From the IMG/VR virus record IMGVR_UViG_2693429700_000021, positions 1 through 7,420 of that record: 7,420 nt of DNA; one strand, 5' to 3'. The DNA comes from a virus (lineage: Duplodnaviria; Heunggongvirae; Uroviricota; Caudoviricetes). Below the pieces are notes generated by a model. It had not been told where the DNA came from and searched no databases. It was given only the letters and a program-made list of their open reading frames with translations. The translations under genes and the position numbers were made by a program. This document shows positions 2,386 through 6,387 of this stretch, piece after piece; position 1 is the first letter of the stretch, and each line of letters starts with the position of its first letter.

Positions 2386-3035
2386 GCAAGATTGACTATC
2401 AGGCACTGCGTGAGGCGGCAGAGCGTGCAATTCCGGCAATGGAACGCCTGTTAATGTTGCCAGTTGATGATGATCTGATAAGCGAACAGGAACTTAAAGA
2501 TTACGGTGTGGATATTGATGCGCTCAACGCCTTCAAATTTCTGACCGGACCAGAAACCGTGCTGGCGCTGCTGGATGAACGGGAAAGAAACCAGCAACAC
2601 ATCAAATCACGCTACCAGGAGAACGAGGATATTGCGCTAACGGTTGGGAGGCTGCTAATCGAAAACGGCCAGCTTGTTGCCGATACGCTACGCCACTTAT
2701 CTGATAACGAAATCGACTCTGATTATTTTGCTATCACCTCAACGAATGAGAACGGTACTGAAATTGATCATGAGATGGCTATTACCGATTACGCACTGCA
2801 AGCTGCCGGAACTGTAGACGAATTGGTTGCAGCGCTGGAATCCGCAGAGAAGCGTATTGCTGAACTGGAAGCGCGGGAAGTTCAATTACCGACTCGCTAC
2901 GACCTTCGATATGGACACCCGATAAATGCAGATGAGCTACATGTCATGATACCTAAAGAAAATGGCAGTTGGCTTTACCTGATTGACCTAGAACACGCAT
3001 TACGCGTCGCTGACATTCGCATCAAAGGAGAGTGA
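2382..3035 (+). CDS. Ead/Ea22-like prophage early protein
   Basis: GTG start at 2382 overlapping the upstream TGA, preceded by GGAGGG. N-terminal MSKIDYQALREAAERA, central VLALLDERE and C-terminal AEKRIAELEAREVQLP match conserved segments I recall from the Ead/Ea22-like family. Confidence 0.7.
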   Translation: MSKIDYQALREAAERAIPAMERLLMLPVDDDLISEQELKDYGVDIDALNAFKFLTGPETVLALLDERERNQQHIKSRYQENEDIALTVGRLLIENGQLVADTLRHLSDNEIDSDYFAITSTNENGTEIDHEMAITDYALQAAGTVDELVAALESAEKRIAELEAREVQLPTRYDLRYGHPINADELHVMIPKENGSWLYLIDLEHALRVADIRIKGE

Positions 3036-3036
3036 T

Positions 3037-3552
3037 ATGGCGCTAACACACCGCGAACTCTGTCAGATTGCGTACAAGTTCCTTAAGCGCAACGGGTTCA
3101 AGGTTTGTTTTCATGACCGCTTTATAGCTGTAACCAGTACCGGAGAACAGCCAGATGCTATGGGATTCAGAAATTCAGCATCATGCCTGATAGAGGCGAA
3201 GTGTTCTCGTGCTGACTTGTTGGCAGATAGAAAAAAGCGTTTTCGTAAAAATCCGTCTCTTGGAATGGGCGACTGGCGATTCTTTATTAGTGAGCCGGGA
3301 ATTATTTCAATTGAGGATTTACCACCTGGCTGGGGATTACTTCACGTTGTTAACGGAAGAGTACGGAAAGTACATGGGTGGCCCAAGGGTAATTGCTGTT
3401 GGGGTAATCCTGACGATAAGCCATTTACTGGAAATAAGCAGGTTGAATGCGATTACATGTTATCTGCATTAAGGCGCATGGAGTTGAGAGGGCACCTTAA
3501 TGAAATATATGACGGTGTAATTGTTAATAAGAAAGAAGGAAACGCGGCATGA
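3037..3552 (+). CDS. PD-(D/E)xK nuclease-like protein of unknown function
   Basis: ATG 3037 with AGGAG 6 nt upstream. N-terminal region has an upstream Glu (RELCQ), then GEQPDAMGF and, 13 residues later, CLIEAKCS, which fits the PD...(D/E)xK restriction-endonuclease-like core. The C-terminal half is Cys/Trp-rich (GNCCWGNPDD). Confidence 0.6.
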   Translation: MALTHRELCQIAYKFLKRNGFKVCFHDRFIAVTSTGEQPDAMGFRNSASCLIEAKCSRADLLADRKKRFRKNPSLGMGDWRFFISEPGIISIEDLPPGWGLLHVVNGRVRKVHGWPKGNCCWGNPDDKPFTGNKQVECDYMLSALRRMELRGHLNEIYDGVIVNKKEGNAA

Positions 3553-3950
3553 TCACTATTACCAAAGAGCGACTACTGACAATCAAGCAGTGGCGCGAAA
3601 CATACGGACCTGATAGCAACGTTGTACTGCCAGCAGAAGAAGCGGAAGAACTGGCGCGGATTGCGCTGGCATCGCTGGAAGCAGAACCGGTGGCATGGCT
3701 GCATTCAGACAATGGCTTAGGTATTCCGGCAATAACACGGAGTAAAAACGTTGCTGACAGTTGGTTATCAAAGGGTTGGTATGTTCAGCCGCTATATATA
3801 GCTCAGCCAGTACACGTGCCGGAGGAAATGAATCTGGCACGCGCACAGAAAGAGGTGGGTTTTAATCGATATATCATGGCTGGGTATGTTGATGGCTGGA
3901 ACGCCTGCCGCGCTGCCATGCTTCAGAGCCAAGGTGGAGGCAACCAATGA
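3549..3950 (+). CDS. Hypothetical prophage early protein
   Basis: 133-aa ORF; ATGA start/stop overlap with the upstream gene. It ends GGGNQ* at the conserved junction motif. No catalytic motif recognised. Confidence 0.65.
   Translation: MITITKERLLTIKQWRETYGPDSNVVLPAEEAEELARIALASLEAEPVAWLHSDNGLGIPAITRSKNVADSWLSKGWYVQPLYIAQPVHVPEEMNLARAQKEVGFNRYIMAGYVDGWNACRAAMLQSQGGGNQ
3864..3878 (+). repeat. 15-nt exact repeat ATCGATATATCATGG, copy 1, inside the 3' part of CDS 3549..3950
   Basis: Identical 15-mer recurs at 6373-6387, with flanking similarity (TTTT before; GG..TATGTT after). Confidence 0.7.
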
Positions 3951-4258
3951 GCAATTATCTGTACTGGTCTGGCTTAGTGGCTAACATCGCGCTCATGTTG
4001 TTCGTGGCTCTTTGCATCTGGGTTTGGTTTATCTGGCCTTTTGTAGAAGCCATGAGCATAACTCGGTGCTTTATTTGCGCATCAAAGACTTCTGGATGCA
4101 AACCAACTGTAAGAGCAATTATCAGAACTTTAAAATACTGGTATCTGGATTTGCTTTTCGGCAGGGGCTGGACGCGAATTAGTAACCGCCAGTTTGAATG
4201 GGAAGGCGTCGGTAACTGGCGAATTCACAGCAGCAAAGAAACGCAGGAGGTGAAGTAA
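3947..4258 (+). CDS. Small membrane protein, hypothetical
   Basis: 103-aa ORF, ATG 3947 overlapping the upstream stop, GGAGG 6 nt upstream. Strongly hydrophobic N-terminal segment LVANIALMLFVALCIWVWFIWPFV predicts one transmembrane helix (possibly two); a Cys-containing stretch CFICASKTSGC follows. Confidence 0.6.
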   Translation: MSNYLYWSGLVANIALMLFVALCIWVWFIWPFVEAMSITRCFICASKTSGCKPTVRAIIRTLKYWYLDLLFGRGWTRISNRQFEWEGVGNWRIHSSKETQEVK

Positions 4259-4830: not shown

Positions 4831-4866
4831 TTTTCCCGGGTGCAGCCGGTTTTGATGGAGAAAATT

Positions 4867-5148
4867 ATGAACACCTTGTTTTTACTGATGGCTGAATTCA
4901 ATACCCCTAACATTGAACTCTCAGCAGTTAGCCAAAAGTACTTTGGCATGAGTCCAGCCACGGCAGAAGCAAAAGCAAACGCTTGTAAGTTGCCCGTTCC
5001 AACATATCGCATCGGCACATCACAAAAAGCAAAACGTTGCATCAATATTCAGGATCTTGCGGAATACATAGACAAAAGACGAGAAGAAGGACGTATCGAG
5101 TGGGAACAGGTCAGAACAAGCAAACAGAAGGGCAAAGAACATCACTAA
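4867..5148 (+). CDS. Excisionase/recombination directionality factor-like protein, PrtN/P22-Xis-like family
   Basis: The track ORF starts at GTG 4840, but GGAG (4857-4860) sits 6 nt before ATG 4867, giving MNTLFLLMAEF..., the N-terminus typical of PrtN-family excisionases. Stop at 5146-5148, followed directly by a strong terminator. Confidence 0.7.
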   Translation: MNTLFLLMAEFNTPNIELSAVSQKYFGMSPATAEAKANACKLPVPTYRIGTSQKAKRCINIQDLAEYIDKRREEGRIEWEQVRTSKQKGKEHH

Positions 5149-5150
5149 AG

Positions 5151-5177
5151 AAAAAACCCGCCTAAAGGCGGGTTTTC
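5151..5177. terminator. Bidirectional rho-independent terminator
   Basis: AAAAAA (5151-5156), stem CCCGCC (5157-5162), loop TAAA, stem GGCGGG (5167-5172), then TTTTC. This gives a U-run on both strands, between the convergent + strand excisionase-like gene and the minus-strand 57-codon ORF. Confidence 0.75.
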
Positions 5178-5195
5178 AAAAAGCACCAGCTATGA

Positions 5196-5369
5196 TCATG
5201 CTGCTTTGCGACGACGAAGCTTACCCTGCTGCTCTTTACCAGAGACAGTAGCGTGAGTGAACGCATTAGGAGCAGCCTTCATCAGAACTTCAACAGCAGC
5301 ACCCATACCTGCGAATGCTTTCATTGTGTCGAACTTAACCTGTGGCTTGGTTGCTTTTTGATCTTTCAT
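5196..5369 (-). CDS. Small hypothetical protein (57 aa), absent from the ORF track
   Basis: My own translation of the minus strand gives MKDQKATKPQVKFDTMKAFAGMGAAVEVLMKAAPNAFTHATVSGKEQQGKLRRRKAA. ATG at 5369-5367, GGGAG 6 nt upstream on the minus strand, TGA stop at 5198-5196, and the bidirectional terminator about 20 nt downstream. Confidence 0.55.
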   Translation of the reverse strand: MKDQKATKPQVKFDTMKAFAGMGAAVEVLMKAAPNAFTHATVSGKEQQGKLRRRKAA

Positions 5370-5439
5370 AGAAAACTCCCGAGACAGTAAAGGCGTCTCT
5401 AACCCTCTCTTTAAAGCTAGCTTGTTTCGCTAACTTATG

Positions 5440-5460
5440 CCAATCGATCATGTCGATTGG
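5440..5460. promoter_or_regulatory. Perfect inverted repeat CCAATCGA-N5-TCGATTGG, candidate operator
   Basis: 8-bp arms are exact reverse complements around a 5-bp spacer. It lies about 70-90 bp upstream of the small minus-strand ORF and overlaps a -35-like TTGGCA on the minus strand. No adjacent U-tract, so it is not a terminator. Confidence 0.3.
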
Positions 5461-5565
5461 TGACATCGTTTCTTAGTAGTTTAAGCACAAAACGACTGCC
5501 ATAGATGTACCTTTAAGGTAATCTGGACGGGTATCCTACAATTTGTAGCCCCTTCTCGTCTATAC

Positions 5566-6102
5566 CTACTGAGCAAATTTAAGAAAGATATCCTGCAGCT
5601 CATCAATGACTGCAGACATCACATAACCGCACTGTTCCATGCGGAAACCAAAAGACTCGTAATACTGCACCAGTTCTGGTACTGGCTCTACAATGTGGAC
5701 AACTTTACATTCAACAGCTTTACAAAATATAAAAGCACTCATAAGAGTGAGTAAAACCATGCGCCCTTTCAATGGGTGAGATTCATCTTCTCTAGAAAAC
5801 CTTTCGATCATATGGATACGAAAGATGTTTTCTTCAACCCCATAAACACAAATTGCTGCTCCTGATGGTATTCCCTGAACCCGACCTTGCTGAACAAGTT
5901 TTATGCAGAACTCATACTTTTCTCTGGAGTTGCCATAGGTGCTTAACGCATAGTCCCATTCAAGCTCACCATAGCCACCACACAGAATCTTGTAATCATC
6001 ATCACTGAGCGGACCAACAGCAAGAGGTAAGCCGACATGATCAATAATCAACTGGATATTGTTACGTACAGATTGACCTATCTCGTCTAGGGTAAGCATC
6101 AT
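5566..6102 (-). CDS. GNAT-fold-like acyltransferase candidate, atypical
   Basis: 178-aa ORF starting with tandem ATG codons (6102-6097) and ending at TAG 5568-5566. C-terminal YYESFGF resembles the conserved GNAT beta-strand (FYxxLGF), and HPLKGRMVLLTLMSAF is a weak candidate for the acetyl-CoA-binding segment. The canonical R/Q-x-x-G-x-G/A motif is not cleanly present, so the fold assignment is tentative. Confidence 0.6.
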   Translation of the reverse strand: MMLTLDEIGQSVRNNIQLIIDHVGLPLAVGPLSDDDYKILCGGYGELEWDYALSTYGNSREKYEFCIKLVQQGRVQGIPSGAAICVYGVEENIFRIHMIERFSREDESHPLKGRMVLLTLMSAFIFCKAVECKVVHIVEPVPELVQYYESFGFRMEQCGYVMSAVIDELQDIFLKFAQ

Positions 6103-6137: not shown

Positions 6138-6372
6138 TCTCATTCTGATGCCCGGCATGGATTACACCTTGAAATGAAAACACCGGGTTCCCAATAGGCT
6201 CCCACAAAGTGTATAACTACTTGTTTTTCAAAAACGATACATCCTATCGAGCATTGGTGCAACGCTAAACCGACCACTCCAGTGAACGTCAGTTTTTTCA
6301 GGCATTGCGCTGGTTTGGTTGATTTTTTGCATTTCAGAATTACCGTGCATTTTCAAATGTAGAGATTATTTT

Positions 6373-6387
6373 ATCGATATATCATGG
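6373..6387 (+). repeat. 15-nt exact repeat ATCGATATATCATGG, copy 2, in the intergenic region
   Basis: Same 15-mer as 3864-3878; about 30 nt downstream is CAGGAGGCTCAATAGCG, which resembles the GGAGGCAACCAATGA gene-junction motif. Confidence 0.7.

Follow-up and report, generated by a model that had tools for sequence, protein, structure and literature searches.

A phage-borne two-gene cassette pairs a small basic protein with a predicted, divergent GNAT-fold acetyltransferase

The open reading frame (ORF) at positions 5196..5369 (minus strand) of the window, the 7,420-nucleotide stretch of Caudoviricetes DNA analysed here (IMG/VR record IMGVR_UViG_2693429700_000021), encodes a basic protein of 57 residues, p57, which by its gene neighbourhood is the fixed second member of a mobile cassette of two genes. 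Ahead of it, at 5566..6102 (minus strand), lies the gene for p178, a predicted acidic acetyltransferase with a divergent GNAT fold. The function of the cassette is most plausibly toxin-antitoxin-like or defence-related. While p57 is already known as a catalogued hypothetical protein, its pairing with a divergent GNAT enzyme, the mobility of the cassette, and a degron-like tail are new relative to the literature searched. Should the cassette act as a defence module or in a toxin-antitoxin-like way, GNAT enzymes would gain a member whose partner is of a new type and whose target is probably not tRNA; p57 would be a small, tractable protein neutraliser that has a built-in degron. If not, two “hypothetical proteins” still become one defined cassette with clear boundaries and a candidate internal promoter.

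p57 is read on the minus strand from an ATG at 5369-5367 to a TGA at 5198-5196, and its translation is MKDQKATKPQVKFDTMKAFAGMGAAVEVLMKAAPNAFTHATVSGKEQQGKLRRRKAA. As the preliminary description of this ORF had noted, the start codon follows a Shine-Dalgarno (SD) sequence, GGGAG, at a spacing of 6 nt; read directly on the minus strand, the order is GGGAG (5380-5376; feature 5376..5380), TTTTCT, and the ATG. An SD-like sequence (GAGG, GGGG, or GGAG) occupies the identical position in all diverged homologous p57 loci. The terminator that had been placed just downstream is likewise present, starting 18 nt past the stop codon, where a scan match at 5177-5152 (minus strand) comprises a stem of 11 bp, 6 of them G-C pairs, with a 4-nt loop and a T run. 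This intrinsic terminator (5152..5177) is bidirectional and also serves the convergent PrtN/excisionase-like gene at 4840-5148 (PF11112, phrog_1300), which ends at 5148. Among the printed sequences inspected for 15 representative loci, 14 have a G+C-rich inverted repeat and T run after the p57 stop, the Photorhabdus locus L100 being the sole exception. Together with the conservation of the frame, the SD sequence and terminator bear out the earlier view of a genuine small gene with good expression signals.

p178 (178 aa; WP_000956556.1) matches PHROG 4350 over its full length (E=2e-103), and no Pfam acetyltransferase model recognizes it by sequence. Its AlphaFold2 (AF2) model is confident (pLDDT 92.9), and a Foldseek search with this model gave 275 PDB matches at E<=1e-3; all 50 of the 275 that were listed are GNAT-type acetyltransferases or structural-genomics entries, and the structural neighbours include TacT3, TacT2, AtaT, and toxin 7byy. 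On this model, p178 is a predicted divergent GNAT-fold acetyltransferase. A conserved tyrosine close to its C-terminus, Y148, sits at what we take to be the position of the AtaT catalytic tyrosine. The p178 family has a net charge of -10 to -18 in 30 of 32 members and a pI of 4.3-4.9 in all but one, and this acidity complements the basic p57 family, whose net charge is mostly +6 to +9. Because p178 is so acidic, which fits poorly with a tRNA-binding toxin, tRNA appears doubtful as its substrate.

The association of the two genes is strict. Among 130 p178-bearing loci drawn from IMG/VR, metagenomes, and genomes, with p178 identities of 39-100%, 127 carry a p57-family ORF just downstream on the same strand, and the other three are contigs that end within 300 bp of p178. 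Wherever the sequence extends far enough past p178, p57 is present (127/127), and the gap between the genes is ~95-200 bp. Distant phages keep the arrangement, with the p57 homologue preceded by a protein of ~178 aa homologous to the product of window ORF 5566-6102 (minus strand). Examples include a 183-aa p178 homologue (47% identity) with a 55-aa p57 partner at the integrase end of another dusA prophage, and, in a P2-like prophage of Edwardsiella tarda, a 162-aa homologue (46% identity) paired with a p57 of 59 aa, the cassette there being placed between gpA, the replication gene, and the portal gene (L226, 2501-3246). Pairwise identities of p178 and p57 correlate with r=0.89 over 153 pairs, and by this measure the two proteins co-diverge. 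The preliminary description overlooked this main point, that p57 is the second gene of a GNAT-fold acetyltransferase cassette.

At least five different genomic slots hold the cassette: the att-proximal end of dusA prophages; the site between the Q antiterminator and holin genes in Hafnia, Serratia, and Edwardsiella; a position between tail genes in Photorhabdus; one beside cas3; and the P2 hotspot between gpA and the portal gene. Beyond E. coli, it is carried by temperate phages of Enterobacter, Hafnia, Serratia, Edwardsiella, Photorhabdus, and Shewanella. Its slots are accessory ones (moron/defence hotspot) in unrelated temperate phages, and this distribution of homologous loci indicates that the cassette is mobile between them. 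Such slots include the P2 gpA-gpQ defence hotspot (bioRxiv 10.1101/2021.01.21.427644), the lambdoid Q-holin moron site, and the att-proximal dusA cargo position. The p178-p57 pair occupies exactly these, yet it matches no PADLOC defence model, and location is not function. Of 5,426 complete E. coli genomes, 562 have the region; a 501-bp query reaching from p57 through the spacer into the 3′ end of p178 is covered to at least 80% in 358 (~7%), and ~200 further genomes match only the p57 part of the query, namely the ORF, the terminator, and the end of the PrtN-like gene.

Several neighbours of the cassette deserve mention. In Hafnia phages (L092, 3150-4109; L093, 3051-4109), a RelA_SpoT-domain gene lies directly upstream, between Q and holin, and could possibly encode a toxic small alarmone synthetase. 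Three further unassigned genes adjoin the cassette of the Edwardsiella prophage, and one copy (L098 / L099, 224-1112) adjoins a type I-E CRISPR-Cas locus (cas3, cse1, cse2).

p57 has a net charge of +8 and a pI of ~10.5. An AF2 monomer computed from the family alignment is of low confidence (pLDDT 63) and was not taken into the fold search for that reason; it contains two short helices, at residues 15-18 and 22-32, and both features suggest a protein that may be largely disordered on its own. The conserved core reads F-D-T-x-x-A-F-x-x-M-G-A-A-V-E-x-L-x-K-A-A-P-x-x-F and is followed by E-x-Q/H-G-K/R and after that by a basic cluster. A role for p57 as a specific acetylation substrate was considered and is disfavoured by the variable N-terminus and the lack of an invariant lysine.

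The Lys/Arg-rich C-terminal tail remarked on earlier is real, with 6 Lys/Arg in the last 14 residues, and it has a further property. In 49 of 57 distinct p57-family sequences, the basic cluster is followed by a C-terminal Ala-Ala or Val-Ala; of the eight that end otherwise, three are solitary copies of the Cronobacter type, three are singletons with a frameshift or read-through, and two are AV point variants. Copies linked to p178 have both the C-terminal basic cluster and the Ala-Ala or Val-Ala end, and family tails include RRRKAA, RSRKVAA, SKKAVA, and RKAAA. This tail resembles a ClpXP degron in sequence. The likeness to ssrA-like and MuA-like ClpX degrons lies in an alanine end after Ala/Val and a basic cluster, comparable to LAA/LVA and to the MuA degron RRKKAI (PMC8138137). 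In a tag screen, the top tag FKLVA, which ends in LVA, was degraded by ClpXP in vitro, and the consensus was [L/F/Y/W]-[L/A/R]-L-A-A (PMC10862746). Ala-Ala alone was insufficient for degradation in that screen, Leu was favoured at position -3, and 39% of Ala-Ala tags were weak (PMC10862746). p57-family tails differ from ssrA-like degrons in having Lys, Val, Ile, or Glu at -3, the favoured Leu being absent.

Expression signals between the two genes point to separate control of p57. A sigma-70-like promoter motif, TAGACG-N18-TAGGAT (5533..5562, minus strand), begins 3 nt past the p178 stop codon, and a similar motif with 16-19 nt spacing recurs just past the p178 stop in 14 of 18 diverged loci. 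Since it recurs while the spacer sequence varies, it suggests a candidate promoter serving p57 alone, even though it is too weak to register in a generic promoter scan. Within the ~150-nt leader, a perfect palindrome, CCAATCGA-N5-TCGATTGG (5440..5460, minus strand), has arms that are nearly invariant in nine enterobacterial loci and is a candidate for either an operator or an RNA hairpin. A small hairpin, GAGAC-N9-GTCTC (5381..5399, minus strand), abuts the p57 SD sequence, and most related loci have an equivalent inverted repeat with some arm changes (AGAGC/GCTCT in Hafnia). The spacer as a whole (5370-5565, minus strand) is unusually conserved and also holds a TTACC...GGTAA inverted repeat (compare L007-L011 and L098). 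RNAalifold predicted no pairs in an alignment of 15 spacer sequences, and in one of nine sequences it gave a weak structure (-7.35 kcal/mol) with little covariation that leaves the hairpin unsupported. A structured leader RNA is not claimed, the covariation being too weak.

These features lead us to favour, tentatively, a reading of p57 as a putative short-lived, antitoxin-like neutralising partner of the p178 acetyltransferase. p57 would bind p178 via its conserved central segment, F13-F37, and its cationic tail, acting as an antitoxin or pseudo-substrate does, would keep the enzyme from working. Expression from the extra promoter would leave p57 in excess over p178, and the ssrA-like C-terminus would make it short-lived through ClpXP. 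Were p57 synthesis to stop, for example because the element is lost or an infecting phage shuts off the host, p178 would be released to modify a cationic cellular target, and growth arrest would follow. The coding status of p57, the strict linkage and co-divergence of the pair, the opposite charges of the two proteins, the degron-like tail, the promoter-like motif between the genes, and the terminator after p57 all favour an antitoxin-like role, as do neighbours and slots that include a Panacea toxin-antitoxin-type pair, the Hafnia RelA_SpoT gene, and the P2 defence hotspot. So does the asymmetry of occurrence: p57 is sometimes alone and p178 never, which is the pattern expected if p178 needs control and fits a dangerous enzyme with a harmless neutraliser. 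Against it stand the lack of a DUF1778/RHH domain in p57, an enzyme-first order and 95-200 bp gap unlike those of known GNAT toxin-antitoxin pairs, the acidity of p178, the absence of a PADLOC match, the low-confidence AF2 model of p57, Lys rather than Leu at -3, and the solitary, tail-less Cronobacter copies that are selected without p178.

The closest comparison is with the GNAT/DUF1778 type II toxin-antitoxin systems (TacAT, AtaRT, KacAT, and ItaRT), which share the two-gene mobile module, a GNAT-fold enzyme of ~160-180 aa, and a small partner that probably takes on order only when it binds. However, p57 has no DUF1778/RHH domain; its gene lies downstream of p178 in 127/127 loci, with its own promoter-like motif, rather than upstream and abutting; and p178 is strongly acidic with no Pfam acetyltransferase match. 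Lacking the partner domain and having a different gene order, p178-p57 is not a member of the GNAT/DUF1778 family. In the reverse-order modules higBA and mqsRA, the toxin or enzyme gene comes first and the neutraliser second, with an additional promoter for the second gene. p178-p57 has the same order and an extra promoter-like motif, but it is not known to be related to these modules in sequence or fold, and its spacer is unusually long and conserved.

p57 also occurs without p178. In the ~200 E. coli genomes with a partial match, homology stops at about window position 5380, and in the examples examined (L002 and phages Lys8385Vzw and SKA5) p178 is replaced by a Panacea-domain protein together with an unassigned 128- or 139-aa protein. 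This variant pair is of toxin-antitoxin type. The Panacea-type swap (PF13274) spans 3310-4298 in L002 and 2973-3961 in both L004 and L005, which are sister dusA prophages, and p57 is intact in the Panacea-variant prophages. The p57 Shine-Dalgarno sequence marks the exact edge of the swap; homology to the window picks up again there, and the slot is therefore a cargo-exchange point. A second set of solitary homologues (51-54 aa) is found in Cronobacter-type P22-like phages (L096, 5001-5156; L223, 3001-3165). These copies have no basic Ala-Ala tail. They occupy the opposite strand between the genes for portal and terminase and follow different, unrelated small genes (85 aa, or the gp49/66 family). 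Their dN/dS is 0.14 at a pS of 0.47; since solitary p57 is under purifying selection, the core, on this substitution pattern, has some function independent of a neighbouring p178.

A rather doubtful alternative to the antitoxin-like role is that p57 is not an inhibitor and instead acts as a required cofactor, targeting subunit, or activator of p178. Its basic tail would then recruit acidic p178 to the ribosome, RNA, DNA, or some other polyanionic site, and the cassette would be a non-toxic enzyme pair for lysogenic conversion or counter-defence. A cofactor is not expected alone, yet p57 persists in ~200 E. coli genomes and in the Cronobacter phages, and a conserved degron-like end and separate promoter are more typical of a labile neutraliser.

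It is unlikely that p57 is an independent small phage protein, such as a nucleic-acid-binding regulator or a host-takeover factor, that accompanies p178 only through a shared cassette and terminator. The selection on solitary copies behind different upstream genes, the retention of intact p57 in Panacea-variant prophages, the promoter-like motif of its own, and the nearly invariant palindrome upstream all agree with such independence. The linkage in 127/127 loci, at p178 identities of 39-100% and in at least five slots, is nevertheless hard to explain without a functional tie, and no DNA-binding domain is detectable in p57 by Pfam or PDB sequence searches.

An extension of the antitoxin-like reading brings the solitary copies into the same scheme, though as a whole it is quite unlikely to hold. 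p178-p57 would be an undescribed phage abortive-infection or addiction system in which ClpXP-labile, polycationic p57 serves as a pseudo-substrate clamp on an acidic GNAT enzyme with a cationic, non-tRNA target. The tail-less solitary p57 of P22-like phages, in lytic modules, would then be stabilised counter-defence decoys.

E. coli TopAI(YjhX)-YjhQ, in which a GNAT-family protein neutralises a small toxin, offers a precedent for reversed roles, with p57 as the toxin and the GNAT protein as the antitoxin. A small basic protein strictly linked to an adjoining GNAT gene is what such a pair would look like. This assignment is improbable, however, because p57 stays intact without p178 in many genomes, which is unexpected for a potent toxin, and because a degron-like tail suits a labile partner and not a toxin. 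The gene order is also opposite to that of topAI-yjhQ, p57 lying downstream of the GNAT gene, and p57 matches no Pfam family; the two systems are set apart here on these grounds. The toxin role offered in the preliminary description fits poorly for a related reason, in that ~200 E. coli genomes match the p57 part only and the examples examined have no p178.

A membrane-active peptide or type-I-like toxin, also proposed earlier, is very improbable. Small size, an Ala/Gly/Val/Met-rich centre, and a location at a prophage border invite the idea, and the reported hydrophobic core does exist as the stretch FAGMGAAVEVLMKAAPNAF (residues 19-37). It has, however, neither the length nor the low charge of a membrane helix. 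The centre is broken by K17, E27, and K31; the Kyte-Doolittle maximum over 19 residues, 1.01, lies well under the transmembrane threshold, and no hydrophobic helix of transmembrane length was found by this measure. The net charge of +8 and the absence of a signal peptide-like start do not suit such a role. No known antisense RNA family reached threshold in Rfam, which at E<=1 over the whole window gave only matches far below threshold, centred on the terminator (rnk_pseudo, 32 bits vs a gathering score of 55).

The coding status of p57 has to be established by conservation. The window contains 81 mechanically called ORFs of at least 30 aa, so the p57 ORF is by itself not beyond chance, and the case for it rests on how it is conserved. 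The frame is intact in 104/104 loci first collected, which represent 24 distinct coding sequences, and frameshift variants are rare singletons only; the disruption of the frame amid conserved nucleotides that was named beforehand as evidence for an RNA did not occur. Synonymous changes dominate, as the same description had asked to be checked, with a median Nei-Gojobori dN/dS of 0.18 over 67 pairs of 14 diverged representatives and synonymous sites near saturation in distant pairs. Homologues in Hafnia, Serratia, Edwardsiella, Photorhabdus, and Shewanella retain the frame, a length of 54-61 aa, and the SD-like sequence, with identities from E. coli to Shewanella as low as ~30%. Given this strong purifying selection and the retention of the frame to ~30% identity, comparative analysis indicates that p57 encodes a real protein and not an RNA. 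A spurious ORF over a conserved non-coding RNA or regulatory element, which the frequency of short ORFs by chance and the overlap of the sub-threshold Rfam matches with the p57 3′ end might bring to mind, is contradicted by all of these observations and has next to no probability.

The ORF was called unannotated in the preliminary description, which holds only for the ORF track used there. On an E. coli chromosome of 100% identity, PGAP annotates exactly this frame as hypothetical protein WP_000654815.1; three GenBank phage records annotate it too, as gp024 of mEp460 and as a hypothetical protein in Lys8385Vzw and SKA5. The PHROG 2741 HMM aligns residues 1-57 of p57 to positions 1-57 of its 57 (E=8.1e-36), and the entries for PHROG 2741 and PHROG 4350 carry no function. 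Pfam, NCBIfam, and PADLOC models match neither p57 nor p178; specifically, no Pfam family matches p57 at E<=0.1, and PADLOC-DB v2 at E<=1 gives zero families for each protein. Profile searches of PDB sequences with the two families found no credible match. A profile search of 1.8 billion representative proteins yielded 14 matches to p57 at E<=0.001, none of which tied it to a known domain. Full-length small proteins of 54-61 aa account for nine of these and start or frameshift variants of 63-77 aa for three, while the remaining two are large proteins with weak matches to repeats. Literature searches by protein accession, locus tag, and PHROG identifier returned nothing on p57 or p178, and keyword searches for GNAT with a small-protein defence or toxin-antitoxin system found no description of the pair. 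No tRNA or tmRNA genes are present in the window.

A lambdoid prophage has inserted into dusA, at the 5′ end of the gene, and the window corresponds to its non-integrase end. Positions 6247-7420 align with the yjbM-dusA site of E. coli Sakai, which is empty of the prophage, and this alignment places the prophage/chromosome junction at 6246/6247. By the same blastn comparison, the displaced 5′ end of host dusA (first ~104 nt) lies at 6247..6350 (minus strand), where PGAP calls a partial tRNA-dihydrouridine synthase pseudogene. The junction agrees with a described family of dusA-specific integrases (PMC4482086), and the earlier placement at a prophage border proved accurate, p57 lying ~880 bp inside it. 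On the circular phage, the order is int <- attP -> cargo -> p57 -> terminator <- xis-like <- exonuclease <- early genes. The displaced dusA end, presumably with its promoter, points into the prophage toward p178 and p57. Since there is no terminator-like site between this end and p178, transcription of the cassette in the lysogen may start from the host dusA promoter. Further out, host yjbM (DUF2713, E=1e-166) occupies 6713-7420 (minus strand), in an ORF that reaches the window edge; in the E. coli ESBL 15 chromosome, a 100% match to window positions 5100-5600, PGAP marks the yjbM counterpart as frameshifted.
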